A stretch of 64,000 bases of DNA, taken from assembly GCA_027451905.1 (NCBI GenBank), contig DAIDHV010000008.1, positions 1 through 64,000 of the forward strand. The letters run 5' to 3'. The stretch comes from Armatimonadota bacterium. Lineage in GTDB: Bacteria > Armatimonadota > Fimbriimonadia > Fimbriimonadales > Fimbriimonadaceae. Shown in pieces: positions 5,967 to 61,170 of the stretch; position 1 is the first letter of the stretch, and every line of letters begins with the position of its first letter. A program made the translations under genes and the position numbers. The notes below the pieces were generated by a model that saw only the letters and a list, made by a program, of their open reading frames with translations, was not told the DNA's origin and ran no database searches.

Positions 5967-7354
5967 CCCTGAGTTCCAGTGGACCAGGCATTGGTCTCCG
6001 TTTCATCTACAATCCAAAGCCTTGGAATGCCGTCCGTTGTTGGCAAACCCGCATTTGGGAACTGGCTTTGATAATAGGCGTCTTCAAAGTACTGCCAGCC
6101 AACGAAGTTGTTAGAGAGCTGAGTTGCTTCATTTGCGAGTGCAACAGAGATGTTGACAGTGCCTTGAGGTGGCTGTGGCATTGTCATGTTGAGGTACTCA
6201 AGTGGTGGTGATGGGGCGGTACCGTTGATGGTAAGGTCAGTACTTTCCACCACGCCAGTTCCCGTTATGTTCCAGGCGTTTGCCCAAGTCGCGTTTCCAG
6301 GCGCCACCGCATAGTTTGGATCGGTGGCGGGAATGTAGTATCCGGCAATATCCATGGCCGCATTGTAGTTGGCATTGGGAGGTCCAAGCCTCGTGAGGGA
6401 AAGGTCAACCCAAATGGGTTTTACATACGAAATGTTCGCGCCGTAAAGTTGAAGGCGACTCGTTCCGCTCAAATCATTTGTTTGGACGAATGGGGCATTT
6501 CCAACAAATGAACCGCCGGTGTATAGCCAGTTGTAGAAGTTGATATAGTTTGCGGGGGCGTTCGCGTCGCCAGGGAGTTCTCCCGCGAGGTCAGGTTGTC
6601 CGTAGGTTTTCCTGGTGTCGATGCTTGTTGAATTTAAATTGAACCGGTTGCAGACAATTGTTCCTTCAGAGTATTGGGTTCCATTAAATAGCGTGTCGAC
6701 CTTGTTGCCGTTAGAGTCATAGTAATAGGTGTCTCCTACATCTTGGACCCCCAGGATGAGGTGATACGTGCCGCTTGACGAACCTGCTATTCGGTTTGTC
6801 AACGTATCGCCATTATTGACAATATAGCCACGAACATAGTAGTTCTGGCCAGTTTTTTGGTCATTGATGGTGGTCTCCGTGCTGGTCTCGCCTTGGTTAC
6901 TCGTTGTGAAATAGTACTCACCGGAGTTTGCGTCGATCGATGTGCAGGTCGAGTAAAGAGTTGCTGTGTAGTTGTCGTCTCTGTATTCCTGCGGGTTTGT
7001 GCCGGGAACGGCCACTCCGGAATCGTTGGCAGGAATGTTTTGTATCGTAAATTGCTGCCGAAAGGCGTGAAATTTTTCGCTTTCGTAACTCGTGGTACCC
7101 GAAGCTTCCTGGACGCCAACTAGCTCCACGTCTGGCCATACTTGGTAGCCAGTGGTTGAGCCGGTGGTGGAACCCGTCGAGGAGCCAGTCGAACTTGAGC
7201 TTGTCCCGCTCGAGCCCGTAGTTTGTGGCGGCGGCAGGACCCCCGTTGAACTTGCAATGCGATCGGAGCGGCCAAGCGCCCCAGAGACTAAGATAATCGC
7301 CACAAAAAAGGCAACGACTATTGAAATAATTTTCGCTCTCATTCTTGTCCTCAA
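5963..7354 (-). CDS. Secreted or membrane-anchored hypothetical protein with an S/T/G-rich linker and a Tyr/Asn/Gly-rich beta-rich domain
   Basis: N-terminal TM/signal (IISIVVAFFVAIILVSGALG); low-complexity STG repeats; 4-nt overlap with the downstream C39-like gene, so the same operon as rhs. Confidence 0.6.
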   Translation of the reverse strand: MRTRMRAKIISIVVAFFVAIILVSGALGRSDRIASSTGVLPPPQTTGSSGTSSSSTGSSTGSTTGSTTGYQVWPDVELVGVQEASGTTSYESEKFHAFRQQFTIQNIPANDSGVAVPGTNPQEYRDDNYTATLYSTCTSIDANSGEYYFTTSNQGETSTETTINDQKTGQNYYVRGYIVNNGDTLTNRIAGSSSGTYHLILGVQDVGDTYYYDSNGNKVDTLFNGTQYSEGTIVCNRFNLNSTSIDTRKTYGQPDLAGELPGDANAPANYINFYNWLYTGGSFVGNAPFVQTNDLSGTSRLQLYGANISYVKPIWVDLSLTRLGPPNANYNAAMDIAGYYIPATDPNYAVAPGNATWANAWNITGTGVVESTDLTINGTAPSPPLEYLNMTMPQPPQGTVNISVALANEATQLSNNFVGWQYFEDAYYQSQFPNAGLPTTDGIPRLWIVDETETNAWSTGTQG

Positions 7355-42112: not shown

Positions 42113-43483
42113 CTAAGAGAAACCCAATTCGATCACTCGCTTTTTGACCAGTTCACGAAATGCACCCGAAGCCGCGTCCACCTGGTCATCATGGGCGCCG
42201 GCAGTTGGAAAAAGGGCCAACTCATTAAGAAAATCTAGGTTCCATGGTGCTCGGACGAGCCGAACATGACCCGCTTCTGCCTGGGCACTCAGAGGCTTGG
42301 CCCTTGCCGTTTTGTCTCCCGAGGAGCGCACGCCTCGAAAATCAAATCCACAAAGGATTTCCCGCCGATACCGATCAACCAAACCAACTCCGCTGCTCCC
42401 TGGCTCTTGCTCCATCCTAACGCTGACCATTTCCCCATCCAGCTGGGCAGTTTGCCTGACCAATTTCTCGACCGTCAAAGGTGTTTCCCGGACGCGGCGC
42501 ACATCTTCAATGGTCAGCCGTCCATCTTGCCCTCGGTTCATTAGCACTCCCACCGTGTAGTCGGGATCGGTGCCTTTTGTTGCCTTTGTGGCAGCGAGGT
42601 CCCAAAATCGCACCCGCTGACCGCCAGGAGGCGGCAGCTCTACAATGCCAAACCATTCCGGCTTGAATAGATTTCCCCCTTCTACCACGTCCCAATCTCC
42701 GTCTAGCAGCCGCTTGCGATCTACCAAATTGAGGGCCCTTAAGTTGGCCAAATAGCCCGGATCTCTTGCCATTAAAATGGCATTGTCATAGATATTAGAG
42801 CAGATAAACGCCACACTTTTACGATTCGGGGACGGCTGGTTGTGCCAAACCGAGACGCCTGCTTCTCTTTCTAAATAGCGCATCTCGCCGCTTGAAGCGT
42901 GAAGAGGATGAGAAGGATCAAGCCACGGGGCTAGGAAAGATTTGACCCAGCTTGTGGCATCGGGGTTGGTTGTTGCTCGAACATACGGCCGGATTCCACA
43001 CGTGGATCGATTGCGGCTAAGAAGATAAAAAAATTGAGATTCGGTAAAGTGGGTCAGCTCATCAAGACCAAGGCCGCAGATTTGAGCACCCTGAAATTGA
43101 AGCTTGTCTTTTTCGTATTGCAAGGAATCGAACCGGATTTTTGATCCCGCCGGAAACTCCCACTCCATCTTGATCTCCTTTCCCTTGGCGCCAAGAAGAG
43201 GGTACAGATTTTGGGATTCATCCCATAATCCGCCTTCCATCCGAACTTGCTCTGAAGTGCGGCGAAAAATCACCGCGCCAAAGGCAGGATTCTTGACGTG
43301 ACGCAGAAACTCTAACAACAAGGCGTAGGTTTTGCCGCCCCCCGCCGCACCGCCATAAATGGCAATGTCGGCTGGGGAGCTTAGAAAGGTTGTTTGAGGA
43401 CCTGGCTGAGGCCCGATTTTGACCATCACTTTTTTGGGGGGAATGGCTTTGCCAATGCAGCCAACGGATGGAGGAGGATTCAA
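42113..43483 (-). CDS. terL: Phage terminase large subunit
   Basis: Walker A GGAAGGGKT, Walker B LDELTHF, C-terminal RNaseH-like nuclease with HDDQVDA. Confidence 0.85.
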   Translation of the reverse strand: MNPPPSVGCIGKAIPPKKVMVKIGPQPGPQTTFLSSPADIAIYGGAAGGGKTYALLLEFLRHVKNPAFGAVIFRRTSEQVRMEGGLWDESQNLYPLLGAKGKEIKMEWEFPAGSKIRFDSLQYEKDKLQFQGAQICGLGLDELTHFTESQFFYLLSRNRSTCGIRPYVRATTNPDATSWVKSFLAPWLDPSHPLHASSGEMRYLEREAGVSVWHNQPSPNRKSVAFICSNIYDNAILMARDPGYLANLRALNLVDRKRLLDGDWDVVEGGNLFKPEWFGIVELPPPGGQRVRFWDLAATKATKGTDPDYTVGVLMNRGQDGRLTIEDVRRVRETPLTVEKLVRQTAQLDGEMVSVRMEQEPGSSGVGLVDRYRREILCGFDFRGVRSSGDKTARAKPLSAQAEAGHVRLVRAPWNLDFLNELALFPTAGAHDDQVDAASGAFRELVKKRVIELGFS

Positions 43484-43776
43484 GGAGAAGATCGGCCATT
43501 GTCGGGCAGAACAATAACAACTCTGCTTTCCATGCCAACTTCTGCCGATGTGTGAACGGTAGCAGCGGGCTTTCCAAAGGCTCGGTTTAGTAAATATTCG
43601 ATTGCCAGCCGATCAGGGGGACGCGTAAACACCGCTTCACCCGATTCATCAAAAACTCTGATGCCATCGGCAAGCTCCATCATCCTCTCCACAAGGTCGG
43701 GCACCCTTGGCAAGATTCTGCCTACCGCACTGTCGGCTGCTTTTTGAGCAGATGGCTTTTTGGTGCCTACAGCCAT
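43480..43776 (-). CDS. Small protein translationally coupled to terL (possible terminase small subunit or helper)
   Basis: 4-nt overlap with terL; size and position only. Confidence 0.35.
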   Translation of the reverse strand: MAVGTKKPSAQKAADSAVGRILPRVPDLVERMMELADGIRVFDESGEAVFTRPPDRLAIEYLLNRAFGKPAATVHTSAEVGMESRVVIVLPDNGRSSP

Positions 43777-43961
43777 CCCGTAAGCAGCACGCCCCGCTCA
43801 TCAAAAAGAACCCTAGCCCCTGCGGGAACCACATCATTGGAAGACTGCACCGAAAATGTCTTTTGGTCCAGACCGTAATTAAGGACGATGGTGCGGTTTA
43901 GCCTGCCAAACGTGATGCCAAAGGCGCGAAATTTGATATTTAAATTTATGTGAAAACTCAT
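43767..43961 (-). CDS. Small hypothetical protein (65 aa) in the prophage module
   Basis: ORF with ATG preceded by an AT-rich promoter-like region. Confidence 0.25.
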   Translation of the reverse strand: MSFHINLNIKFRAFGITFGRLNRTIVLNYGLDQKTFSVQSSNDVVPAGARVLFDERGVLLTGWL

Positions 43962-44206
43962 ATTTTCTGACGAATTGAAGATTTTTTGGTCATTTAGTCC
44001 CGAACTTAGAGAACATGGAATGAAATTTGAAAGATTTGTCGTACAATAATAAAAGACATTGTTGTCGTGTAAAGTAACGACAAACCTAGCTTGGAACATC
44101 GGAGACATTCGCAGCAGCAAAATTATTTCAATATCATTTGCAAGTTATTCTGCCCGTAGTACTAGTGGTACAGCGGGCTTTTTCTTTGATCGGGACCAAT
44201 TTGCGT

Positions 44207-44392
44207 TTAAGAAGCTGGAGGGTTGAACCGAAATAACTTCAATCCAACCACTCCGCTCAGCAAAGCTGCTATTGCTTGCCCGCAGGTGGGCCACCGGTTA
44301 GAGGCAAAAATGGGGGTGAGGGCGGCAAGGTAAGAGCCAAGAAAGGCTGCAATATATTTGGCAACCAAGGGTCCAGTTAGTTTTGAGTTCAT
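44207..44392 (-). CDS. Small 2-TM membrane protein (holin-like)
   Basis: 61 aa with two hydrophobic helices; sits within the lysis cassette. Confidence 0.4.
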   Translation of the reverse strand: MNSKLTGPLVAKYIAAFLGSYLAALTPIFASNRWPTCGQAIAALLSGVVGLKLFRFNPPAS

Positions 44393-44480
44393 CGAGATTC
44401 TTTGGGGGTTAAGGGGGGTTGGATTTGGAAGTCTTAAGGATTTTCAGTTCCAAGCACAGCGGCAAAACGGGGATGAGGTG

Positions 44481-44774
44481 TTAGGGTTTTAGGGTGCGGC
44501 TTTCGATGAGGCGATCCAGTTTGGCTTCAATCCGATCCAAGGTTCGACCTTGGTTGCTCACGTGGGTTTCCGCCGCCGTCAGACGGTTATCAAGCCTGTC
44601 TAGCCTCTCGCGGACCAGACGGTGCCTCTCCTCTGACACCTTGGAGGCGGCATCCACTTCCTTGATCTGATCTCGGATCGACTCGTTGGCACCCTTGTAC
44701 TTGCCGCCAAACCACAGGGCGCCTCCAGTGAACAAAACAATCGGCCAAATGGCAGATATCCATCCAGGATTCAC
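44481..44774 (-). CDS. N-terminal TM plus coiled-coil protein (holin/spanin-like lysis accessory)
   Basis: TM WISAIWPIVLFTGGALWF followed by a charged coiled-coil; lies between the endolysin and the holin-like gene. Confidence 0.4.
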   Translation of the reverse strand: MNPGWISAIWPIVLFTGGALWFGGKYKGANESIRDQIKEVDAASKVSEERHRLVRERLDRLDNRLTAAETHVSNQGRTLDRIEAKLDRLIESRTLKP

Positions 44775-44783
44775 TTTTCTGGC

Positions 44784-45383
44784 TTACTCCCACCATGCGC
44801 CGCCCTGAAAATCGTCGCACCGTAAAAACCACATTTCTCCTCCGTTGAAAACCGGATGGGTTTTTTGATACGCTCCATCCGCCCCGGCTCCATCAGGAGG
44901 CGTGGTGTTGTACTCTACCGTGCCAATCGAGATGACCTGATCACCTGCATCGGTGAGCCTTTTTTCCACAAATCCAATATGGCCGTGGCCATTGGCAAGA
45001 GTCCAACCGAAGAGGGCGCCATGCCAATCTAAAAGATTCTGGGGGTCATGACTCAGCCTGCCTCGGGCCTCAAACCAGTCGCGGATGTCTTTGGCAAGCC
45101 CATGAAATGGAAATCCAGACGCGCCCGCTTGATGAAAACACCAAGAGACTCCCGCCGCGCAATAAGGCGAGCCAATAGGATTGCCCACAAACCGATTGAG
45201 AGCGTTGATGCGGGGGTTGACATCGTCACGTTTAAGGTCTCGCAGCGGCAGCTGAACATCAAGAAGCGCCCAATCCAGTGCGGTTCTTGCCTTGATCTTA
45301 GTACTTTTTTGTTCACTTGCCCCCAATTTAGGCCACCCCTTTGTTTGCCTGACCAGCAAGGCACTTTCTTGCCCGCCAAACAT
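44784..45383 (-). CDS. CHAP-domain peptidoglycan hydrolase (endolysin-like)
   Basis: Cys...His CHAP signature: SPYCAAGVSWC and GHGHIGFV. Confidence 0.65.
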   Translation of the reverse strand: MFGGQESALLVRQTKGWPKLGASEQKSTKIKARTALDWALLDVQLPLRDLKRDDVNPRINALNRFVGNPIGSPYCAAGVSWCFHQAGASGFPFHGLAKDIRDWFEARGRLSHDPQNLLDWHGALFGWTLANGHGHIGFVEKRLTDAGDQVISIGTVEYNTTPPDGAGADGAYQKTHPVFNGGEMWFLRCDDFQGGAWWE

Positions 45384-45948
45384 AGGTGCGGATGGTAGCC
45401 TCGGTTGCCCCCATCACAGCAGCCGCTTCTCGGCAGCTCATGCCAAGGATCGTCACGCAAGCAAGGGCACGTCGGTAGGGTGTTGGAAGGCACTCCAGAC
45501 GGTCATAAACGTCATCAAATTCATCAGACGGGCCCTCTTCACAAATAGCGCCATCAAGGGCAGAATCACACGAAACCGTCTTTGGCGAGCGATCAGATTT
45601 GCGCCTCATGGCAGAGGCTTCTGACCTGATAATCGTGCCGATCCAGGTTCCAAACGAGCCGAGACTGGGGTTAAATTGCTTCCATTTGCTGCAAACCGCA
45701 AGACGAACGGAAGAGGCAAGATCTTCTTGATCTTCGCGGCTTTTGGTGGAACTTTTGCAGAGTTTTGCAATGAGCCCTTCGTGTTTAAACAGGGCAAGTT
45801 CAACCGCTTTTTGATCCTCGGAGGATAGCATCTTGCCGATCGGCTCGGCGTCGTCGGTTGGAAGCAGAACAGCACGAACCGGGTCCGATTCTTCAAGGGT
45901 CAAGCAGGGGGAACAAGAAGCTTCAGCAGCCTGAGCTTGGGATAACAT
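45328..45948 (-). CDS. ECF-type sigma-70 family factor
   Basis: Region 2 and region 4 HTH (LPTPYRRALACVTILGMSCREAAAVMGATEATIRTYVWRARKCL). Start taken at MLSQAQ. Confidence 0.7.
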   Translation of the reverse strand: MLSQAQAAEASCSPCLTLEESDPVRAVLLPTDDAEPIGKMLSSEDQKAVELALFKHEGLIAKLCKSSTKSREDQEDLASSVRLAVCSKWKQFNPSLGSFGTWIGTIIRSEASAMRRKSDRSPKTVSCDSALDGAICEEGPSDEFDDVYDRLECLPTPYRRALACVTILGMSCREAAAVMGATEATIRTYVWRARKCLAGQANKGVA

Positions 45949-46013
45949 GGCGCAAGTTTGGATAGGTTGAAAAGCAATCACAATTACTAAATAGTATCTT
46001 TTTGTCTTATATG

Positions 46014-46044
46014 TTGACATTTTAGGCTTACATTTAGATACAAT
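46014..46044 (+). promoter_or_regulatory. Sigma-70-like promoter (TTGACA ... TACAAT) for the repressor gene, inside the divergent sigma/repressor control region
   Basis: TTGACA at 46014-46019 and TACAAT at 46039-46044; spacing is somewhat long. An alternative -10 is possible. Confidence 0.4.
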
Positions 46045-46050
46045 AAGTTA

Positions 46051-46788
46051 GTGGATGCAGGAAGGAAACTGGCAATGGCAAGGCGATACTTTGCTCCTGC
46101 CCTCAATCAGGCGGAGCTTGCCGCGAGGCTCCGAGTTTCTAGGTCCACAGTGGCACGATGGGAAACCGAAGGCAGCCCCACTCCCGAGGCGATCAGCAAG
46201 GTTGCTCATTGGCTTGGGATTGATCCTTTTTGGTTCACCGACGGATCGAGTCATCCTCCAAGATTTGCGGGCGGAGAGCCTTCCAATGCAAGGCAGGTCA
46301 AGCCACTAGAATCTGAATTTGCATCATTCTCTTTGTCGAGGGGCGATCAGGTGCTGCTGCCAATTTGGAGAGGGGTCATGGCGAGTGAAGGCGAGTGCGA
46401 ATTTTGGCCGTCTGATTCAGTAGAGTTTAGGGTTGCGCCCTCCTTTTTAGCCTCTGCTGACCCTGAATCTCACATTCTTTGCATAGCAAGCGGGATGAGC
46501 ATGGCCCCAAGGATTGACCACGCCGAGAAGGCGATTGCCAAAATTGATCCCGATCCGCCGATCGGAGCCATTGTCATTGCTCGGCGTCCGGATGGGGCCA
46601 ATTTCATCAAGGTCCTAAAAAAGGCAGATAATCGCCGCCTAGAATTGCACAGCCTTAATCCCGATTTTCCTCCCATTACCAGTTCAAGGGATTGGCAGCT
46701 CAAGGGCTATGTGGTCGCCATTTTGCACACCTACCACGGCGCCGGCGCCAATATTGAGTGGGACGACGGTCGCCCCCTCCGCGGCTAA
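46051..46788 (+). CDS. CI/LexA-like repressor: XRE-type HTH plus S24 peptidase (autocleavable) domain
   Basis: HTH (QAELAARLRVSRSTVARWE); S24 Ser motif GMSMAPRI and downstream Lys (FIKVLKK). Confidence 0.8.
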   Translation: MDAGRKLAMARRYFAPALNQAELAARLRVSRSTVARWETEGSPTPEAISKVAHWLGIDPFWFTDGSSHPPRFAGGEPSNARQVKPLESEFASFSLSRGDQVLLPIWRGVMASEGECEFWPSDSVEFRVAPSFLASADPESHILCIASGMSMAPRIDHAEKAIAKIDPDPPIGAIVIARRPDGANFIKVLKKADNRRLELHSLNPDFPPITSSRDWQLKGYVVAILHTYHGAGANIEWDDGRPLRG

Positions 46789-49651: not shown

Positions 49652-49880
49652 GCGTCTTTGCGTCTTCGCGTGAAAATAGATCTCGCAAAGCCGCAGAGGC
49701 GCAAAGGAGTTCCTCAAAGTTTGTTCGCCAACCACTTGATCCCACCTAAACTTCTTAGCGGCTTAGCGTCTTCGCGTGAAAATTCATCCCGCAGAGGCGC
49801 AAAGAAGCGCAAAGGTTTTCCTCAAAGTTTGTTCACCACCCTCTTGATCCCGTCCTTGATCAATGATTCACCAAAATTGA
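49652..49880. repeat. Two tandem ~115-bp repeat units (GCGTCTTCGCGTGAAAAT...CGCAAAGCCGCAGAGGCGCAAAGGA...TTGATCCC...CTAAACTTCTTAGCGGCTTA). Further copies at 50213-50510.
   Basis: The 18-nt cores recur at 49652, 49766, 50213, 50331 and 50444, and the intervening ~95 nt are alignable. Confidence 0.75.
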
Positions 49881-50196
49881 CCAAAAGCCCCAGCCTCAGA
49901 TCAGATAGCCGGAGATACGTTAGCAGGATTTTATAGGCCACTGGCGGCACGATTTCTAACGACTTAATCTCGACGATGACCCTACCCTCCACGATCAGGT
50001 CAGCTCGAAAACCATCCTCCAGTTTTACGCCTTCGTACACAACTGGAATCGGCCGCTGCCTGTCGACACGTAGCCCCCGAGCCTTCAACTCGTACTCAAG
50101 GACGGTCTCGTACACTGACTCCAACAGTCCGGGCCCTAGCTTGGAGTGCACCTTGAAAGCCGCGTCTACAATAATGGCTGAAATCTCGTTCTCGCT
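49822..50196 (-). CDS. GxxExxY family protein (PD-(D/E)xK nuclease fold)
   Basis: GPGLLESVYE motif. A 27-codon duplicate of its 5' end lies at 49565-49651. Confidence 0.75.
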   Translation of the reverse strand, partial: SENEISAIIVDAAFKVHSKLGPGLLESVYETVLEYELKARGLRVDRQRPIPVVYEGVKLEDGFRADLIVEGRVIVEIKSLEIVPPVAYKILLTYLRLSDLRLGLLVNFGESLIKDGIKRVVNKL

Positions 50197-50212
50197 CATA
50201 CCCACCACCTTA

Positions 50213-52327: not shown

Positions 52328-53740
52328 CTACCTTAGCCCGCCGCCAAACTTAAGCGAATTCATTAGTTTCTCCAACTCGGCAAAAGTCGCGTCTTGTTCA
52401 TCCTGAGGCCCTACGTAGTAAACACGCACCATTACGTACGCCTGGCTGGACAAATGCCGAGTAAAACTCTCCTTCCAATCTGTGAGAGGTTTCGCTATAC
52501 CTGATCGGCTGAGAACATGGATTGACTTCTCCTTGTTTACATCGTCCTTAGCTTCCTTTTTGTAAGTGGTTTGGAAGGGAGAAGCATCAGTCGGGCGGAA
52601 ATGCTTGAACCAATACAGGCAGTTCTTTGCCCAGTCTGGACCACCTTCTTCAAAGTAGTGGCCGAGCTGCCTGTGCCAGGTCAGCCTTGCCTCCTCCTTC
52701 CGAGCCCCAATCAGTTCTTCGAAAGACCAGAACAGGGGTGCCGGTTTTCTCTTGACGACCCGATCTCGCAAGGCAATAATTGCCCTGCCTGCCGAATCCG
52801 GGATCGCATTGATGAGCCTCATGAGGTAAGCGTCTGTATAGTGATGCCAGTCTCCAGATTCGATCGCAGCCACGAGTCCTTCCCTGCCCAAATTGAGGTC
52901 TCCTTTCTCGATCAAGTGCCGAATACATCTCTTTAACATTTCCTCGAACCCTACGACGGTCTTGTGGAAGATCACCTGGAGGTAGTCAAAACTCCGGCAC
53001 ATTACATAGTGGTCGGCAGCCCGAATCGCCTTCGGGCTAAGGCACACGCGCGCCGCTGAGTCGGTGGTCAGGTTTTGTATGATGTACTCACGGTCGAAAT
53101 GACCGTAGGGTAATCCGGTCGCCTGCGATGAGCGCATGAGATAGTCCAGGCGGTCTGCGTCCAGTTCAGATGAGACAAGGGTCCAGTATGTCTCGTCTGT
53201 CGCACCTTTAAACATGGCCGCAAGCCTGTCGGCAGCCTTACCGTCACCTTGTAATTTCTTAATTATAGGAGCAAGCTCCGGGTCTTTCTCAAGAATCAGC
53301 TTTCCCACTCGCTCATGATCGCAATAGTCGAAGGTCGACGGGGCGGCAAGTACTGGCCCCCCGGAAAGAGCCGCCTTGGAAATAGAATTCTGATGGTCTT
53401 CCAAAGCGTCCTCGGTAGCATGCGACATGAAATAGTGGCCAATGTCATGCAGTAGCATCGCAATCCGTCGAAATTGGAGTTCTTCGTCTGCCAGCCGCTT
53501 GCCGAGGTCTTTTCGCGCCTCGAGCCGCTCCAATATCTGCCCCATCGTGTGACAGGCCCCGATGCAGTGCGCGAACCGGCTGTAATCGGCACTCGGGAAA
53601 ACGTAGTTTGCGAGGCCCAGTTGCTCCACATGGCGAAGCCTCTGGAAGACCTGGGTATCGATAATCTTCAATTCTAACTCAGTCAGCGGAATGGTGCCAT
53701 AGACCGGGTCGCTGACTGACTTGCTATAATTAAGAGGCAT
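52328..53740 (-). CDS. HD-domain phosphohydrolase of the dGTPase/SAMHD1-like family (candidate dNTP triphosphohydrolase effector)
   Basis: DPVYGTIPLTELELKIIDTQVFQRLRHVEQLG...; HD pair (FAHCIG...LLHDIGHYFMSH). Overlaps the upstream gene by ~11 nt. Confidence 0.75.
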   Translation of the reverse strand: MPLNYSKSVSDPVYGTIPLTELELKIIDTQVFQRLRHVEQLGLANYVFPSADYSRFAHCIGACHTMGQILERLEARKDLGKRLADEELQFRRIAMLLHDIGHYFMSHATEDALEDHQNSISKAALSGGPVLAAPSTFDYCDHERVGKLILEKDPELAPIIKKLQGDGKAADRLAAMFKGATDETYWTLVSSELDADRLDYLMRSSQATGLPYGHFDREYIIQNLTTDSAARVCLSPKAIRAADHYVMCRSFDYLQVIFHKTVVGFEEMLKRCIRHLIEKGDLNLGREGLVAAIESGDWHHYTDAYLMRLINAIPDSAGRAIIALRDRVVKRKPAPLFWSFEELIGARKEEARLTWHRQLGHYFEEGGPDWAKNCLYWFKHFRPTDASPFQTTYKKEAKDDVNKEKSIHVLSRSGIAKPLTDWKESFTRHLSSQAYVMVRVYYVGPQDEQDATFAELEKLMNSLKFGGGLR

Positions 53741-54221
53741 CCTCTTGAAAACCAAACTTGATGAGTGCCACTCTCGCAGGATCAAACAGAGCTTGTAGGT
53801 GGGGCTTATTCTTTTTACACCGTTCGACAGCTTCCTTAAGCGTTCTAGCCATCACGCGGACCATAAAGTCGAGGGAGGCAACAGCTTCAAGCCAATCCGC
53901 TAAGTTCGCCTCTCGAGGTTTGGCTGCGATCAGATCCTTAACAGGTTTCAGGTTCTCCTGGAAATCGTCACTTGCCGAATACCTTTCGTATAAAGTCCTA
54001 TCTTCGTCAAGATGATAGTAGGTATCGGCTAATGAGCTGGAGTACGGTCCGTTGATGTACCACGAGAATCGGTATCCGAGGTCTGCTCCTTTAGTTTGTG
54101 CGAGGTAAATCGCCTTCTGCATGGAAATGCGATCCACCTTTGAATCTACACTTATCGGAACATCAAGTTCCTTCAGAATAACGCTAACCCAAGCTGCCTT
54201 GGGGCTAAACTCTACTGCCAT
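53730..54221 (-). CDS. DUF4065/Panacea-domain-like small protein (GepA/SocA/PanA-like candidate antitoxin)
   Basis: ISMQKAIYLAQTKGADLGYRFSWYINGPYSSSLADTYY matches the hallmark KLQKLLYYAQ...F.AW..GPV...VY pattern of DUF4065. Translationally coupled to the HD gene. Confidence 0.5.
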   Translation of the reverse strand: MAVEFSPKAAWVSVILKELDVPISVDSKVDRISMQKAIYLAQTKGADLGYRFSWYINGPYSSSLADTYYHLDEDRTLYERYSASDDFQENLKPVKDLIAAKPREANLADWLEAVASLDFMVRVMARTLKEAVERCKKNKPHLQALFDPARVALIKFGFQEDAS

Positions 54222-54385
54222 TTATTCACGTAAAGAAAACGACGGGTCCTAAAGCCGATTCGATTCGCCAAGGAACAGTAGACGTCCATACACTATTATA
54301 GCACAAATTCTGCTGAATTGTCTCATAGGCTTTCTTGTAACCTGACCTTTGGCCTTGCCCTATTGTTGACATATCTTCAGCATTG

Positions 54386-57300
54386 TTACTTCTTCTCTGC
54401 AGACACCAAGCCAAAGAACCGTTCGAAGAACGCGATTAGCTTTGCGAGAACTCGCTGCTTCTTCTCGCTGTGCCCGCCGTCCGGTGAGAATCGCGAAACT
54501 GGCGGCATCACCTTTGTGATGGCGGTCCCACTCGTACGAAGTACGCCGTCCCGGAAGGCCGCCTCGACGAATGCGGCGGTCTCCTCTGGCTTGAGGTTCT
54601 CCTCGGCAATAATCTGATCAAGTTCAGCCTTCTTGCGCTGATCAACAAAGACTCGCCATTCGGCGTCAACTTCGCCAGTCGCTGAAACCGAATCCACGAA
54701 GTTCTCAATCAGGTCTTTCTTGTTACGTAAGGTTGGCGATGAATCAACAGCTCGTGTGATCTGCGCCCTGATCTCAACATCCTCGCCGTCCCCTTTCGCC
54801 TCACGGAACTTCGCCACCAGCATCAAGATGAAGTCAACGTTGATTTCGACCTGCTTGATCAGCTCGATCTCAAAGACAATGTCATCAAGAATCTGCTCCT
54901 TGTCAGAGTCCTTGGTTGACCTGAAGTCGGCGTAAATGTCGAGGTAGACGCTTCGATAGTCCTGCCCCTGGCGTTGATCGAGCAATTCGTGTCCTTCGAA
55001 CTCATCGAACGAGGTCAAGATGTTTTGCAGGCGCAAGATCGCGCCGAAGAGAGCAATGAAGTCTTTCTTTGCCTGCTCGCCGACGATGCGCTCACCGAGC
55101 GGGAATCTGGCGAGCAACTCCTGCACCCTCTTTTCGTACTCGCGAAAATAGTGCCCGAATGGCTTGAGGACCGCAATGCCCTTGGCGTCCTTGTTACCAA
55201 AAAGTGCAAGAGCGTCGTTCGTTTCCTTCTCAAGATCGCGGAAACTCACGATGTTGCCGTAGGCCTTGACCGAGTTGAGAATCCGGTTCGTGCGCGAGTA
55301 CGCCTGAATTAGGCCATGAGCCCGGAGGCCCTTGTCGACGAACAGAGTGTTGAGAGTCGTGGCGTCGAAGCCCGTCAGGAACATGTTGACCACGATCACA
55401 AGGTCAATCTCGCGGTTCTTTAACCGCAGGCTCAAGTCTTTGTAGTAGTTCTGGAACTTATCCGCCGATGTGTCGAACGATGTTCCGAACATCTGATTGT
55501 AATCTTGAATCGCTGAATCAAGGAAGTCCCGCGTCGCTCCCGTAAGGTGGGCTGTCTCGAACTCTTCTTCCTCGAGAACTCCATCTTCAACAGCCTCATT
55601 GACTGCATAAGAGAAGATGATGCCGATCTTTAAGCGCTTATCAGGCACGCGGGATGCCTGCTGCCGCTTGAACTCCCCGTAATAGATGCGGGCGGCGTCA
55701 ATCGAAGCGGTTGCAAAGAGGGCGTTAAAGCCTCGCACACGTCGCTCACCCAGAGCATAGGAGTCGTTTCGCTTCGTCTTCTGGTCAAAGTGTTCGAGGA
55801 TGTAGCCGGTCACTAGGCCAATTCGCTCGGTTGCCAAGAGAGCCTTCTCTGTGTCAATAGCGGAGACCTTCTTATCCTGCACGTCACCCATCTTCACCGT
55901 GTTCACGTAGTCGATGCGGAACGGCAACACGTTCTTATCGGTGATCGCATCTACAATCGTGTAGGTATGGAGCTTCTCGCCGAACGCTTGTTCGGTCGTT
56001 TTGAGCCGCGGATTCCCTCCGCTGGCCATGTTGGCTGTAAAGATAGGCGTTCCTGTAAATCCAAACAGGTTATATCGTTTGAAGGCTCGGGTGATCGCCG
56101 TTCGCATGTCGCCGAACTGTGAACGATGGCACTCGTCGAAAATGATGACGATGTGCCCGCCGAAGACTTCATGCCCTTTGTTAGCCTCTACAAAGTGAGA
56201 AAGTTTCTGAATTGTCGTGATAATGATCCGCGACTGGTTGTCTCCCAACTGCCGCTTGAGAACCGCCGTCGAGGTGTTCGAGTTGGCAGCCCCCTTTTCA
56301 AAGCGGTCGTACTCGCGCATGGTTTGGTAGTCGAGGTCCTTACGGTCAACCACAAAGAGCACCTTGTCCACGCTTGGCATCTTGCTGGCGAGTTGAGCGG
56401 CCTTGAAGCTGGTGAGGGTCTTGCCGGAGCCAGTCGTATGCCAGACGTAGCCTCCCGCTTCGACTGTCCCTAGCTTCTTGTAGTTAGTCGCGATTTCGAT
56501 TCGCTGCAGGATTCGCTCGGTCGCTGCGATCTGATAGGGCCGCATCACCAGAAGCATCCGGTCCGCGGTGAGAACGCAATAGCGAGTTAGGATATTTAGG
56601 ATCGTGTGCTTGGCAAAGAAAGTCTTAGCAAACGCGGTTAGCTCCTGAATCGGCTTGTTCTGCGAGTCCGCCCACCAAGACGTGAACTCGAAGGAATTGG
56701 AGGTCTTCTTGACCTTCTTTGCTCCAGCGGCATCCTGGATGTGCTGTCGACGCGTCGTGTTGCTGTAATACTTCGTCAGGGTGCCGTTGCTGATAACAAA
56801 GAGTTGCACGTACTCGAAGAGCCCTGTGCCTGCCCAAAAGGAATCGCGCTGATAGCGGTCGATCTGGTTGAACGCCTCGCGGATGTCAACCCCGCGCCGC
56901 TTGAGCTCGATATGCACCATCGGCAAGCCGTTCACAAGAACGGTCACGTCATAGCGGTTGGCCCTCGCAGTATTCCCCTCCTCCGGAGGGGTGTCGCCTT
57001 TGGGTGACGGGGTGGTTTCGTATTGGTTGATGACCTGGAGGCGGTTGTTGTGGATGCTCTGACGGTCGATCAGCTTGACGTTCTTGGTTGTCCCGTCGTC
57101 ACGATTGAGAAGCTGGACCGGGTCTTCTTGGATGCGAACCGTCTTCTCAACAATCCCATCGTTCTGACCTGCAATCTTGGTCTCATAGAACTGCTTCCAT
57201 TCCGCCTCGGAGAATGTGATGCCGTTTAGGATTTCGAGCTGCCGGCGAAGATTGGAGATCAACTGGTCTTCCGATGTGATCCGGAGGTGCTCATAGGCTT

Positions 57301-57457
57301 GCTTCTCCAGTTGCCCGATGAAGGCTCGCTCTAAAGCGTCCTCGCTCTGATAGGTTGCCTCGCGCACAAGGCTTTCGGGAATGTACTCCGCGACTACCGT
57401 GCTCTCATTCGAAACGGCAATCGGCTCGTAGTTATAGGGCCTTCGTTCCTCGCTCAT
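54386..57457 (-). CDS. hsdR: Type I restriction enzyme R subunit
   Basis: Nuclease domain (VTVLVNGLPMVHIELKRRG), SF2 helicase motifs (TGSGKT; IIFDECHRSQ). Confidence 0.92.
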   Translation of the reverse strand: MSEERRPYNYEPIAVSNESTVVAEYIPESLVREATYQSEDALERAFIGQLEKQAYEHLRITSEDQLISNLRRQLEILNGITFSEAEWKQFYETKIAGQNDGIVEKTVRIQEDPVQLLNRDDGTTKNVKLIDRQSIHNNRLQVINQYETTPSPKGDTPPEEGNTARANRYDVTVLVNGLPMVHIELKRRGVDIREAFNQIDRYQRDSFWAGTGLFEYVQLFVISNGTLTKYYSNTTRRQHIQDAAGAKKVKKTSNSFEFTSWWADSQNKPIQELTAFAKTFFAKHTILNILTRYCVLTADRMLLVMRPYQIAATERILQRIEIATNYKKLGTVEAGGYVWHTTGSGKTLTSFKAAQLASKMPSVDKVLFVVDRKDLDYQTMREYDRFEKGAANSNTSTAVLKRQLGDNQSRIIITTIQKLSHFVEANKGHEVFGGHIVIIFDECHRSQFGDMRTAITRAFKRYNLFGFTGTPIFTANMASGGNPRLKTTEQAFGEKLHTYTIVDAITDKNVLPFRIDYVNTVKMGDVQDKKVSAIDTEKALLATERIGLVTGYILEHFDQKTKRNDSYALGERRVRGFNALFATASIDAARIYYGEFKRQQASRVPDKRLKIGIIFSYAVNEAVEDGVLEEEEFETAHLTGATRDFLDSAIQDYNQMFGTSFDTSADKFQNYYKDLSLRLKNREIDLVIVVNMFLTGFDATTLNTLFVDKGLRAHGLIQAYSRTNRILNSVKAYGNIVSFRDLEKETNDALALFGNKDAKGIAVLKPFGHYFREYEKRVQELLARFPLGERIVGEQAKKDFIALFGAILRLQNILTSFDEFEGHELLDQRQGQDYRSVYLDIYADFRSTKDSDKEQILDDIVFEIELIKQVEINVDFILMLVAKFREAKGDGEDVEIRAQITRAVDSSPTLRNKKDLIENFVDSVSATGEVDAEWRVFVDQRKKAELDQIIAEENLKPEETAAFVEAAFRDGVLRTSGTAITKVMPPVSRFSPDGGHSEKKQRVLAKLIAFFERFFGLVSAEKK

Positions 57458-58359
57458 GCTTGCCCTCCTTCATATGCTTGCGCGATGAGCGCCGAGACGT
57501 CCTCGACATCTTTCTGAGCCCTAATCCGAACCTCAAGGTCTCCCGTCCCCCAATGTCCAATCTTGCTTACATCCCGAAGTCCGTCGCGCATTGCCACCTC
57601 ACTTGGGTTCAGGTGGAGATATAGGCAGAATTCGCCTCGCTTTGCGTAGGTAAGACTTGCGAAGTTTCGAGTACGACGAAACGCGATGGAGAGTTTCGTT
57701 TCCTTTTCTGCAATGTCGTCACCCTGCGCGCGAACGGCGGCGCACGTCGCCTCGAAAAGGGCCTTTGTCTCGGCCGATTGATCAGCCAGCCACTGTGCCA
57801 TGGACTTATCCGTGCCGGCCTTCTGTGTTCCTGTTGTAGTCGGAGTCACCCCAGCTTCCTTGGCGCTGGATGTAATACGCTCCAGCAGAAGGTGGCCGTC
57901 TCCAAAGCGACGGTAGCGTACAAGATCAATCATGTTCGGCATCAACTCATACATCCCAAGATCATCCCGAGTGAAATCAGCTGCAATGCACACCAGCCGA
58001 ACCGACGAGAAATCCACACTGTCGGCCACTTCATTTCCTAGCTTGTTAAAAACTGCCTTCCAAAACTCTGCTTGGTGGTTCTTGATCCAACCTAGGTAGG
58101 CTACACCCTGGTTGATAACCGTGCGGTTTTTATCGAGCTTATATTCGATCACCACGGGGAAGTTGTTCTCGTCCAAGCCCAACGTATCGATGCGATTCCC
58201 TGCTCCGGCTACGAATTCGGAAGCAACTAATCGCACACCGAGAAGGGCTTCCAAGTTTGCCTCAAAGAGACTTTGAACGTCCTTTTCTAGCTTGTACGCT
58301 TTGGGATGAGCCTCTTCGACAGAGGCCCCATTCAAGGTGAAAAGTCGGAGCTCGCTCAT
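57454..58359 (-). CDS. Restriction-linked ORF: N-terminal DUF91/NucS-like PD-(D/E)xK domain plus C-terminal DUF5655-like domain. Embedded between hsdS and hsdR.
   Basis: GNRIDTLGLDENNFPVVIEYK (D...E.K nuclease-like motif); 4-nt overlaps with both neighbours. Confidence 0.5.
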   Translation of the reverse strand: MSELRLFTLNGASVEEAHPKAYKLEKDVQSLFEANLEALLGVRLVASEFVAGAGNRIDTLGLDENNFPVVIEYKLDKNRTVINQGVAYLGWIKNHQAEFWKAVFNKLGNEVADSVDFSSVRLVCIAADFTRDDLGMYELMPNMIDLVRYRRFGDGHLLLERITSSAKEAGVTPTTTGTQKAGTDKSMAQWLADQSAETKALFEATCAAVRAQGDDIAEKETKLSIAFRRTRNFASLTYAKRGEFCLYLHLNPSEVAMRDGLRDVSKIGHWGTGDLEVRIRAQKDVEDVSALIAQAYEGGQA

Positions 58360-58928
58360 CCAGCCTCCTGGAAGGTGAGCAAACGGTCGCGATAATGTTC
58401 GTACTGTTGGCGACGAGCGTTAAGCTCGGCAGGAAGGCCGACGGTCAGGTCGTTGACGAGGGCATCGAACCTATCGAGGATAGAGACGATGTGCCGCTGC
58501 TCATCTATTTCTGGGACAGGAATCAGATAATCCTTGATCTTCTGAGCATTCAGGTTTGACTGGGAGCCTTCGCCGAGAGCCTTTAAGCGAGAATACTCCT
58601 TTGCAATCCAGTGGTAAACAAATCGATAGTCCGCCTGCTCTGGGTCAACCTGCAAATTGCAGCAAGCCTGATTTGTCGTGAGGGGAATCGCATTAACAGC
58701 CACCTTAGCGGCGGTTGCTCCATACATAGCTACAATCACGCAATTTGCTGGAATCCACTTAGCCGAAGAATCCTTTAGGCCCGCTTCGGTTATAGTCATT
58801 CCAGTCGACCGGATGACGCCATAGTCAACCTCTTGAGTGCGTAGCCAAGGAATATCTCCGCCGTAGTAGTCAGCTTGCCTAGAACTTGGTGTGCCCCCTG
58901 ACGAGATTTTCGTACAAATCTCAATCAT
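58356..58928 (-). CDS. hsdS: Type I R-M specificity subunit, C-terminal half (TRD2 plus distal conserved helix)
   Basis: HsdS TRD fold; C-terminal RRQQYEHYRDRLLTF conserved motif. Confidence 0.8.
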   Translation of the reverse strand: MIEICTKISSGGTPSSRQADYYGGDIPWLRTQEVDYGVIRSTGMTITEAGLKDSSAKWIPANCVIVAMYGATAAKVAVNAIPLTTNQACCNLQVDPEQADYRFVYHWIAKEYSRLKALGEGSQSNLNAQKIKDYLIPVPEIDEQRHIVSILDRFDALVNDLTVGLPAELNARRQQYEHYRDRLLTFQEAG

Positions 58929-59578
58929 TCTCGCCCACCTGATCCGTCTCTCTCTCTCTCGGTGAACGTCAGCAGCTGATCGCGGTAAAAGGTATACTGT
59001 TTACGCCGCGCCTCTAGCTCCGCCTCTAGCTCCGCCTCTAGCTTACTAAAGGTGTCGAGGATTCTCACTATCTCCCGCTGAATTTGGCTCGGAGGAACCG
59101 GGATTTGAACCTTTGCTAGATTTTGCGTCGAAATGGCCGAAATCTTAGATGAAGAAATGTGGCGCCTTATCTGATTGTGAAAATCGTCAGTTTGGGAGAA
59201 GTAGGCGACATACTTAGGATCAAGGGAGCTACGGATCGCGTAGAGAGCGTCGTGGATCACAACATCCTCGTCTCCGAGCCAAGCTACGGATTTTCCGATA
59301 TCTTCGACAGTTTCTCCGGCCGAGACAAGGATCACGTCGCCCTTGCTGGCGAACCGCAGCCTCGATGCTACTTTGGGGTCCAAGTAGGAAAATGCCGTGT
59401 CGGCCCAAGTCCCATATTTGGTGTACAGTTCGCCATAATGGATACAAGGAACTCCGGACTCGATCATGTCCGCCTTTACAAAGCGCTTACCACGCGTTAT
59501 CGTGCCGATCTCCCCAATGGTCCTATGCTCTACACCTTTAGGGCAAAGTCTTTGGAGCAGATCGTCAATTCGGCTCAT
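58925..59578 (-). CDS. hsdS: Type I R-M specificity subunit, N-terminal half (TRD1 plus central conserved region with ELEA x3 repeat)
   Basis: HsdS TRD; LEAELEAELEARRKQYTFYRDQLLTF. ATGA overlap with the C-half gene. Confidence 0.8.
   Translation of the reverse strand: MSRIDDLLQRLCPKGVEHRTIGEIGTITRGKRFVKADMIESGVPCIHYGELYTKYGTWADTAFSYLDPKVASRLRFASKGDVILVSAGETVEDIGKSVAWLGDEDVVIHDALYAIRSSLDPKYVAYFSQTDDFHNQIRRHISSSKISAISTQNLAKVQIPVPPSQIQREIVRILDTFSKLEAELEAELEARRKQYTFYRDQLLTFTERERDGSGGRE
59011..59046. repeat. 12-bp tandem repeat x3 (CCTCTAGCTCCG) encoding ELEA repeats in the HsdS central conserved region
   Basis: Perfect tandem copies. Confidence 0.85.
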
Positions 59579-61170
59579 ACGATGCTCCCTTCTAGGTCTG
59601 CGACTATTGCATCTATCTGCGCTCTGAGTTCCGATTGCCGAGCTACGATTTCGGCGATCTTCGCATTCAACTCAGTGATGTCGATTGCTTCGGTTGTGTC
59701 TTCCTTTTCCACATAGGAAGACACCGAGCAATTGTAATTGTTCTCCGCCAATTCGCTGTGCGCAACCAGCCGCGTAAAATGGGCTTCATCTCTGCGATTT
59801 GTGAAGGCATCTAGAATCTTCTGCTGGTGCGCAGGCACCAGCTTGTTCTTGTTGCCGACGCGAGTGAAAAGTGCCGAAGCATCAATAAACAGGACGGCGT
59901 TGTCCTTCTTCGACTTCTTCAGCACGATGACGCAAGTGGCGATGGTCGTTCCGAAGAATAGGTCGGGCGGAAGCTGGATCACCGTGTCGATGTAGTTGTT
60001 GTCAACGAGATATTTCCGAATCTTCTGCTCGGCTCCGCCCCTATAGAGGACGCCAGGAAACTCAACGATGGCTGCCGTGCCGTTCACTGCAAGCCAACTC
60101 AACATATGCATGGTGAAGGCAAGGTCGGCGGCGGATTTCGGGGCGAGCACGCCAGCGGGAGCGAAGCGCGGGTCATTGATGAGAAGGGGGTTCGCGTCTC
60201 CCTCCCACTTGATCGAGTAGGGCGGATTAGAGACGATGGCTTCAAATGGCTCGTCGTCCCAATGTTTCGGATCAGTGAGTGTGTCCCCGTGCGCGATGTC
60301 GAACTTCTCATAGTTCACGTCGTGCAGAAACATGTTGATGCGGGCGAGGTTGTAGGTCGTCAGATTGACCTCCTGGCCAAAAAATCCTTGCCGGACATTC
60401 TCCTTGCCGAGCACCTTGGCGAACTTTAGAAGCAGCGACCCTGAACCGCAAGCTGGGTCGTAGACCTTGTTGACTTGGGTCTTTCCAGCTACCGCGATTC
60501 GCGCAAGAACTTCCGATACCTCTTGCGGCGTGTAATATTCTCCTCCTGACTTTCCCGCTTGCGAAGCGTACATTTGCATCAGATACTCGTACGCGTCGCC
60601 AAAGAGGTCGATTGAGTTGTCTTCGTAATTGCCGAGCGGCAGGTCGCCGATGGCCTCGAGGAGTTTCACAAGCTTCTCGTTTCGCTTAGCAACAGTCGGA
60701 CCCAGCTTCTGCGAGTTAACGTCAAGATCGTCGAAGAGCCCTTTGAGATCGCCTTCGCTCTCTGTGCCCACAGCTGAGCCTTCGATATTGCTGAAAACGC
60801 GCTCCAGCGTTTCGTTGAGATTTTCGTCGTTCTTCGCTTTCTTGCGGACGTTATCGAATAGCTCGGACGGAAGGATGTAGAAGCCCTTTTCGGCGACGGT
60901 TTCCGCTCGCCCGAACTCGGCATCTTTATTCGAGAGCTTTGCGTAGTCGAAGCTCTTCTCCCCCGCCTCCCGTTCAAGCTTGTTGATGTAGGATGTAAGG
61001 TTTTCTGATATGAAGCGGTAGAAGAGCATGCCAAGAACGTAGGATTTGAAATCCCATCCATCCACGGAGCCCCTCAGATCGTTGGCAATCCGCCAGATTG
61101 TTTTGTGCAGCTCTGAGCGCTGTGATTCACTCGTAGAGGCCGTCATCACAAATCCCTTTCTGCCCTGCAC
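59575..61170 (-). CDS. hsdM: Type I R-M DNA methyltransferase subunit
   Basis: N6-adenine MTase motifs: SNPPYS (motif IV) and DPACGSGSLL (motif I). Confidence 0.92.
   Translation of the reverse strand: MQGRKGFVMTASTSESQRSELHKTIWRIANDLRGSVDGWDFKSYVLGMLFYRFISENLTSYINKLEREAGEKSFDYAKLSNKDAEFGRAETVAEKGFYILPSELFDNVRKKAKNDENLNETLERVFSNIEGSAVGTESEGDLKGLFDDLDVNSQKLGPTVAKRNEKLVKLLEAIGDLPLGNYEDNSIDLFGDAYEYLMQMYASQAGKSGGEYYTPQEVSEVLARIAVAGKTQVNKVYDPACGSGSLLLKFAKVLGKENVRQGFFGQEVNLTTYNLARINMFLHDVNYEKFDIAHGDTLTDPKHWDDEPFEAIVSNPPYSIKWEGDANPLLINDPRFAPAGVLAPKSAADLAFTMHMLSWLAVNGTAAIVEFPGVLYRGGAEQKIRKYLVDNNYIDTVIQLPPDLFFGTTIATCVIVLKKSKKDNAVLFIDASALFTRVGNKNKLVPAHQQKILDAFTNRRDEAHFTRLVAHSELAENNYNCSVSSYVEKEDTTEAIDITELNAKIAEIVARQSELRAQIDAIVADLEGSIV

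Follow-up and report, generated by a model that had tools for sequence, protein, structure and literature searches.

Depletion of nucleotides by SAMHD1-like enzymes is an antiviral strategy common to humans and bacteria. Tal and colleagues are said to have described, in 2022, a stand-alone defence dGTPase (dGTP triphosphohydrolase) that counters phages in this manner. How such enzymes are silenced until infection is, to our knowledge, only starting to be understood, Clover and AvcID being the known examples. The subject here is a pair of overlapping genes in a 64,000-nucleotide stretch of an Armatimonadota genome (contig DAIDHV010000008.1 of assembly GCA_027451905.1, positions 1 to 64,000; hereafter the window). 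The first gene encodes a small protein resembling the C-terminal domain of the antitoxin DarG, and the second a putative SAMHD1-type HD hydrolase.

Three described systems come closest to this arrangement. In Clover, the deoxynucleoside triphosphate hydrolase (dNTPase) CloA is restrained by CloB, and defence dNTPases need such a restraining partner (PMC12265719). In DarTG, the C-terminal domain of DarG neutralises the DarT toxin by binding it, and DUF4065 proteins were reported in 2026 to be homologous to this domain at a marginal E of 1e-3 (PMC13621843). Among the Panacea (PanAT) toxin-antitoxin pairs, Dataset S1 of Kurata et al. 2022 lists a predicted PanA partner cluster, pT33/T34, described as 'HD domain-containing protein' and assigned to CDD YdhJ (COG1078). 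T34 comprises seven rows, all marked 'notest' and all from Clostridia, where the HD gene stands by PanA in Ammonifex, Desulfofundulus and Caldicellulosiruptor (PMC8832971).

A literature search for an HD-antitoxin, DUF4065-HD or COG1078 defence pair returned only this supplementary-table entry of Kurata et al.; a 2026 survey of dGTPase architectures mentions no such partner, and NetFlax discusses no HD node. A preliminary description of the locus had held the pairing, to its author's knowledge, to be undescribed. That claim is too broad, as a PanA/HD(YdhJ) cluster had been catalogued, yet it remains correct that the cluster was never analysed or tested there. The pair in the window is thus a plausible, widespread and uncharacterised module of toxin-antitoxin type that would deplete nucleotides; its concept was already catalogued and its function is proposed here from homology and genomic distribution.

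The gene pair and its products

The pair occupies 1.9 kb and has the following features.

53730-54221, minus strand: small gene, 163 amino acids (aa), putative antitoxin (open reading frame and homologues)
52328-53740, minus strand: HD gene, 470 aa from the ATG at 53740, putative effector, that is, toxin (open reading frame and homologues)
53730-53740, minus strand: 11-nucleotide (nt) overlap of the small-gene stop and the HD start, ATGCCTCTTAA (read from the sequence)
54039-54119, minus strand: most conserved core of the small protein, residues 35-61, QKAIYLAQ...GYRFSWYINGPYS (130-member alignment)
53132-53578, minus strand: predicted catalytic core of the HD protein, residues 55-203 (alignment to SAMHD1/EF1143 and 62 partnered homologues)

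Both open reading frames (ORFs) lie where the preliminary description had placed them, and their overlap is exactly 11 nt, which implies translational coupling. The longest possible HD ORF would begin at a TTG at 53785; homologues start at the methionine of the MPL... sequence. An overlap of the same length is found in the 77%-identical pair of L183/L184, and one of 14 nt in L185. Homologues are numerous, with E down to 1e-68 for the small gene and 1e-248 for the HD gene, so that both are real genes and not chance ORFs.

Linkage of the two genes was surveyed from either side, in 80 loci found with the HD protein in one-genome-per-species GTDB contigs and scanned with a hidden Markov model (HMM) of the small protein, and in 80 metagenome loci found with the small gene. 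The small gene lies directly upstream of the HD gene and on the same strand in 59 of the 80 HD-seeded loci; measured between the final sense codon of the small ORF and the residue where the HD alignment begins, the median distance is 22 nt. Fourteen further loci have the small gene within about 2 kb in other arrangements: upstream but farther away in eight (seven crenarchaeal loci with an opposite-strand gene between the partners, and L077, split by an insertion), downstream on the same strand in three, and on the opposite strand in three. Three loci are cut by a contig end and four lack the small gene, which is therefore present in 73 of 77 informative loci. Conversely, an HD ORF follows the small gene immediately in 69 of the 80 metagenome loci and precedes it in two, while four are cut by a contig end and five have none (71 of 76 informative loci). 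The co-occurrence that the preliminary description had proposed to survey is thus near-obligate in both directions. Across 62 pairs, identity between small proteins rises with identity between HD proteins (r=0.79, Mantel p=0.001); small protein and HD protein are inherited together and diverge together.

The family is large and scattered. An exhaustive profile search with the small protein recovered, at E<=1e-3, 2515 cluster representatives (50% identity), of which 1261 remain at E<=1e-10; almost all are stand-alone proteins of ~160 aa. Hosts belong to at least 12 bacterial phyla and to the archaea: Armatimonadota, Acidobacteriota, Chloroflexota, Planctomycetota, Pseudomonadota, Desulfobacterota, Myxococcota, Nitrospinota, Nitrospirota, Chlorobi, Actinomycetota and Dormibacterota, with methanogens and Crenarchaeota. 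A peptide-pattern search, which sets a lower bound, gave 198 confirmed matches among 185,579 species genomes. The crenarchaeal loci (L076, L078, L080, L081 and L085-L087, from Sulfolobales/Desulfurococcales) are distant homologues, scoring about 50-70 bits for the small protein and ~270 bits for the HD protein; a 328-aa opposite-strand gene separates the partners and the neighbours are conserved.

The small protein is best called DarG C-terminal-domain-like, a designation suggested by three sequence models and a predicted fold. The PADLOC DarG model matches it at E=2.9e-8 over profile positions 163-241 of 329, and the NCBIfam DarG model at E=8.4e-6 over positions 173-234 of 338, with 25 bits against a cut-off of 250. 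When a profile of 130 family sequences was compared with the PDB, the best match was a DarG chain, 7yk3_B (E=0.005), in which the motifs QKxxYLxQ...GPYS and ELLAS-H are aligned. An AlphaFold (AF2) model of the small protein, with a predicted local distance difference test score (pLDDT) of 89.5, retrieved chains D and B of 7yk3 as the top Foldseek matches in the PDB (probability 1.00, template modelling (TM) scores 0.61 and 0.55), the next match having a probability of 0.18. Against viral predicted structures (BFVD) the best match had a probability of 0.54 and a TM score of 0.33, and nothing there was convincing.

Conservation is concentrated in the core, which aligns with DarG residues 34-65 (IQKLMYFAN...GRYGPYS). 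Q35, K36, G58 and P59 are invariant among the 130 members, and Y39, L40, Q42, Y50, W54, Y55 and Y60 nearly so. The preliminary description had read the motif ISMQKAIYLAQ together with YRFSWYINGPYSSSL as the hallmark of a DUF4065 protein, and had made this assignment depend on an HMM match to Pfam PF13274. Both motifs are in the protein, but the family label does not hold. PF13274 gives no match to the window protein even at E<=10, none to any of 130 family members at E<=0.01 and none to 10 divergent members at E<=1; it is silent on the window protein and 140 relatives. Membership of Pfam DUF4065/SocA_Panacea was ruled out after four tests without a PF13274 match. A superfamily link to Panacea is nevertheless probable, and runs solely through the published marginal similarity between DarG and DUF4065. 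A Pfam scan of the 163 aa found no macrodomain, and no nucleotidyltransferase domain was matched.

The HD protein resembles proven dNTPases over its full length. Its family profile matches Aquifex 2hek (4e-56), Enterococcus EF1143 (2o6i/3irh/4lrl, 9e-49) and Bacteroides 2q14 (1e-45) in the PDB, followed by some thirty SAMHD1 entries at about 1e-33. With its AF2 model (pLDDT 83.6), Foldseek ranked EF1143 first at 1e-17, with a TM score of 0.67-0.70 over the full length, and SAMHD1 after it; TM scores of 0.65-0.70 over ~480 aligned columns were obtained with 3irh/4lrl, 2o6i, 4zwg and 9mr6, the C-terminal lobe included. The likeness to dGTPase and SAMHD1-type enzymes that the preliminary description had seen in the N-terminal 150 aa is therefore borne out by profile and structure comparison, though it is not confined to that segment.

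Family models place the enzyme less sharply. Pfam HD and HD_assoc_2 fall just under their gathering thresholds (for HD, 19.3 bits where 22 are required), NCBIfam Dgt scores 16.4 bits with its cut-off at 467, and the PADLOC dGTPase model PDLC02374 reaches E=0.0091 and 13.4 bits over the N-terminal 90 residues only, short of membership. By its sequence, the HD protein is a member of the COG1078 branch and not of the described defence dGTPase family.

The predicted active site is intact. The catalytic core contains R55, H58, H98-D99, H102, H107, E110, H142, D194, D196, R197, D199, Y200 and R203, all invariant in the 62 partnered homologues except Y200 (59 of 62). In all 62, H58, H98, D99 and D196 are present as metal ligands and H102, H107 and H142 as catalytic histidines, and likewise E110, R55 and L41; the DxDRxDY motif matches EF1143. 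Alignment and model together mark the protein as a putative dNTP triphosphohydrolase.

A different substrate for the HD enzyme in an otherwise toxin-antitoxin-like module, making it a nuclease or a hydrolase of NTPs or signalling nucleotides, is very unlikely. HD domains are catalytically versatile, the Pfam HD match is weak, a passage in PMC7854603 describes nucleic acids bound by SAMHD1 at its allosteric sites, and other branches of the HD family belong to operons of quite another composition, for example one on Rhizobium and Roseibium plasmids. Against this, the equivalents of the SAMHD1/EF1143 dNTP-pocket residues Q149, L150, R164, H167, H206, D207, H210, H215, D311 and Y315 are invariant or nearly so, and the entire chain, not the HD core alone, superposes on proven dNTPases.

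One part of the enzyme departs from SAMHD1. A gap-free alignment joins residues 7-58 to SAMHD1 116-167; within this stretch D28 (53657-53659), at the position of the guanine-specifying allosteric residue D137, is variable (S in 18, N in 14, G in 9 and D in 7 of 62). The equivalents of SAMHD1 Q142 and R145 are mostly kept in the partnered family. A variable D28 beside an invariant catalytic pocket hints that nucleotide allostery has been altered or lost.

Mobility, decay and proposed function

Relatives of the pair are found in contexts that have little in common. The closest relative pair, with an HD protein 77% identical, lies between a recA-rny-sigma cluster and valS, and a 58-60% identical HD relative lies among hypothetical genes with a DUF4238 gene nearby. 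As these contexts are unrelated, the adjacency to a restriction-modification (R-M) operon described below belongs to this genome and not to the cassette. Of the 146 ORFs surveyed next to the pair, none represents a conserved third gene; they are a blend of housekeeping functions and some defence functions (type I specificity subunits, MADS components, AriA-like and HerA ATPases, PD-T4-6 and AbiLi). Often the HD protein has its nearest relative in a different phylum, or even a different domain: that of Methanoregula in Rubrobacteraceae, that of Chthonomonadaceae in Pseudomonadota. Judged by these sequence comparisons, the pair is an autonomous, horizontally mobile two-gene cassette.

Mobility of this kind bears on the possibility that the pair is a housekeeping regulator of the dNTP pool, a dNTPase with an accessory subunit and no role in defence or addiction. 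Such a role would agree with the many ordinary metabolic or transport genes among the neighbours, with the apparently vertical inheritance and conserved synteny of the crenarchaeal loci, and with the housekeeping duty of EF1143-type and Dgt enzymes in some bacteria, as told in a passage of PMC11071499. It is quite unlikely in view of the patchy distribution, the nearest relatives across phylum and domain boundaries, and contexts that differ even among 77%-identical copies. Copies also stand in a phage-like element and, at several loci, by R-M, PARIS-like, MADS, PD-T4-6 and DUF4238 genes, and the HD gene has decayed repeatedly.

This decay is asymmetric. One mosaic phage-like lineage carries exact copies of the small protein P0189, encoded in a region with genes for a phage major capsid protein, a prohead protease and an N6/N4 DNA methyltransferase. 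Contig L110, the same as L173/L174, keeps the whole pair, with a full-length HD ORF after the small gene. Loci L173-L178 had been considered as orphan small genes and were rejected, since the small gene is followed there by a full HD ORF whose start the gene caller had placed too late. Relatives without the HD gene (L100-L102, L106, L109, L113 and L120) carry the small gene intact at ~99% nucleotide identity, and homology to the pair ends 37 nt after it in L101/L106/L109, ~85 nt in L113, ~220 nt in L100/L102 and ~245 nt in L120. What is left on these contigs is a relic of the HD 5' end, or nothing detectable. The HD gene was thus deleted at no fewer than four different endpoints in this lineage. 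The elements themselves are built of segments 97-100% identical in shuffled order, and the upstream DNA methyltransferase is present in some and absent in others.

Other loci add to this picture. An unrelated phage-like contig, L004 (Logan SRR22808008, 60.6 kb, 6001-6742), has a 47%-identical small gene without a full HD gene; the ORF after it encodes 83 aa, of which the first 30 match HD residues 9-38 at 63% identity. In L031 the HD gene has an in-frame stop and in L033 it is truncated C-terminally, the small gene being intact in both. In L077 the small gene is split by the insertion and the HD gene is frameshifted too. The remaining content of L004 includes a PIF1 helicase, an HMUDK_hel hydroxymethyl-dUMP kinase domain, YAcAr and many small co-oriented ORFs. 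P0277 (L088, 3001-4645) was examined as a fusion of the two proteins and rejected: its ORF runs into the N-terminal 150 HD residues and the remainder is in another frame. It is probably an assembly or indel artefact or a pseudogene, and was left out as evidence.

Loss of the HD gene with retention of the small gene fits the polarity expected of a toxin and its antitoxin. The orphan of L004 may be a captured antitoxin used for counter-defence, and orphan small genes on phage-like elements could serve this purpose in general.

The same polarity counts against a small protein that serves a defence dNTPase as an obligate subunit, whether for activation, sensing or scaffolding, and that would replace or supplement nucleotide allostery and switch the enzyme on at a phage cue. 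An activator without its enzyme would have nothing to preserve, whereas intact orphans beside HD relics, with several independent deletion endpoints, suit an inhibitor that is useful or harmless alone. The sole characterised homologue of the fold, the DarG C-terminal domain, inhibits (PMC13621843), and a small gene followed by a large one with an overlap is the classical antitoxin-toxin layout. An activating subunit would account well for the equal conservation and tight co-divergence of the two proteins and for the unconserved equivalent of SAMHD1 D137, with Q142/R145 equivalents mostly kept. It would also account for a small protein that has neither a DNA-binding domain nor a charge bias hinting at nucleic-acid mimicry. 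On balance, such a role is unlikely.

We lean, with little more than even confidence, towards a type II toxin-antitoxin or abortive-infection-like dNTPase defence module, on the strength of sequence comparison, structural models and analogy. When active, the HD enzyme would hydrolyse dNTPs and thereby starve DNA replication of phage and cell alike. The small protein, made first and coupled in translation, would bind the HD enzyme and keep it inactive; this inhibition is proposed because the homologous DarG domain does so to DarT. Infection would free the enzyme through loss or turnover of the small protein, or through its displacement by a phage factor. The dNTPase activity, the inhibition by direct binding, the trigger and the anti-phage role are what we infer. 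Observed is one of the marks of a type II system, a conserved bicistronic pair that moves as a unit, seen in the linkage, the correlated divergence and the unrelated contexts. The preliminary description had already proposed a toxin-antitoxin or abortive-infection pair; linkage, co-divergence, an intact active site, mobility and asymmetric decay now speak strongly for it, though without the Panacea label of its putative antitoxin.

Several observations weigh against a toxin-antitoxin module. Mean identity is 38% for the small protein and 37.6% for the HD protein. For a fast-evolving antitoxin such equal conservation is less typical, and it would suit an obligate subunit just as well. Housekeeping genes surround many loci, for example L005, where the pair comes after dnaA-gyrB. 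A close HD homologue, L040, has no small gene nearby, and L056 combines an intact HD gene with a small ORF that is missing ~37 residues at its start. A single lineage supplies several of the HD-loss variants, and independent events are accordingly few. The crenarchaeal loci are syntenic; the association there looks vertically inherited and may operate in another way. Scanning IMG/VR with patterns for each of the two proteins yielded no relatives, and the small protein had no tblastn match among PLSDB plasmids or INPHARED phages. PADLOC defence models match neither of the two convincingly (dGTPase E=0.009), and a literature search gave no toxicity, binding, dNTPase or phage data for the family.

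In viral and plasmid collections the HD protein has only more distant COG1078 branches as relatives, with other partners or none. On Rhizobium and Roseibium plasmids (L089, 1131-4922; L090, 267-3886), a distant COG1078-type HD gene comes last in a conserved operon of four, after genes for a radical SAM protein, a 3'-5' exonuclease and an AAA ATPase, and the Rhizobium operon adjoins VapC and ABC-three-component genes. This operon looks like a separate candidate defence system with the same effector class.

A more far-reaching version of the toxin-antitoxin module can be drawn, which we regard as doubtful. In it the small protein would be more than an antitoxin, namely the infection sensor that gates an ancient SAMHD1-type dNTPase by protein contact, partly replacing the nucleotide allostery of SAMHD1 and EF1143; the pair would be a widespread immune system of bacteria and archaea that had escaped notice, and the orphans on phage-like elements would be counter-defence genes neutralising it.

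Surroundings of the pair in the window

The pair sits directly downstream of a type I R-M operon, as the preliminary description had stated, and the operon is complete. The genes of this operon and the gap that follows it are these.

59575-61170, minus strand: hsdM, in the operon upstream of the pair (family search)
58925-59578 and 58356-58928, minus strand: hsdS half ORFs of 217 and 190 aa, with one Methylase_S target-recognition domain each
57454-58359, minus strand: PDC-S18/DUF5655 protein, 301 aa, between hsdS and hsdR (PADLOC candidate defence family PDC-S18, E=4.9e-105)
54386-57457, minus strand: hsdR, last R-M gene before the pair (family search)
54295-54324, minus strand: promoter-like site GAGACA-18-TGnTATAAT in the gap between hsdR and the small gene (consensus match only, 10/12 positions, extended -10)

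The two hsdS half ORFs overlap by 4 nt and could be either a natural half-S arrangement or a split gene. The gap between hsdR and the small gene measures 164 nt, and the promoter-like site within it is a possible promoter of the pair's own; three such sites were found in the region where 2.0 are expected, which is not significant by itself. A search of the flanks of the pair found no Rfam family, no notable repeats and no convincing terminator.

Downstream of the pair lie DUF885, PDDEXK_3 and fucosidase genes. The PD-(D/E)XK_3 protein (128 aa, 49822-50208, minus strand; Pfam E=1.6e-38) stands alone between the DUF885 and fucosidase genes. About 5.5 kb from the pair is a prophage remnant (42113-46788) with a large terminase (42113-43483), two small holin-like ORFs, a CHAP-domain lysin (44784-45383), an ECF-type sigma factor and a CI-like HTH-S24 repressor (46051-46788).

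Comparison with known systems

If the proposed mechanism is true, a dedicated protein inhibitor of DarG/Panacea type would be a third way in which nucleotide-depleting enzymes are restrained. A DarG-type protein inhibitor for a SAMHD1-like dNTPase is the new proposal made here, and a plausible one in the light of the profiles and predicted folds. The family comprises ~2500 sequence clusters, spans many bacterial phyla and archaea that defence catalogues sample poorly, and is absent from PADLOC v2. Its natural orphan small genes are candidate anti-defence genes.

The pair shares with PanAT a small, all-helical, stand-alone protein beside a much larger COG1078 HD enzyme, often with overlapping genes, in a bicistronic mobile cassette of variable context; neutralisation by a binding antitoxin would be a further common trait, proposed here by analogy. 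It differs in that the small protein is unseen by Pfam DUF4065 (none of 141 sequences), and a family to which that model is blind would have escaped the Panacea survey. The T34 rows are marked T|A, whereas the order here is small gene, then HD gene, and seven Clostridia rows compare with at least 12 phyla plus archaea and ~2500 cluster representatives, T34 being compared by description only.

With DarTG, the pair has in common the motifs QKxxYxx...GPYS and ELLAS-H and the predicted fold of the DarG C-terminal domain (7yk3). Only this domain is shared; there is no macrodomain here, and the partner is an HD hydrolase, not the DarT ADP-ribosyltransferase.

Clover and AvcID resemble the pair in encoding a nucleotide-depleting effector alongside a dedicated restraining partner. 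Restraint in Clover takes the form of a nucleotide signal from a Pol-beta-type nucleotidyltransferase; in its place the window encodes a 163-aa helical protein without a nucleotidyltransferase match, for which restraint of the type of the DarG C-terminal domain is proposed. AvcID combines a deaminase with an antitoxin small RNA, in contrast to the protein partner found here.

The stand-alone defence dGTPase shares the concept of a dNTP-destroying effector, but the HD protein belongs to COG1078 and meets the PADLOC dGTPase model at E=0.009 and 13 bits. The SAMHD1/EF1143/TT1383-type enzymes of COG1078 share with the HD protein the full-length fold, the metal ligands, the catalytic histidines and the gap-free N-terminal hairpin (SAMHD1 116-167). 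The window enzyme is set apart from them by the lack of a SAM domain, by its variable D137 position and by a dedicated small partner that the characterised enzymes do not have.

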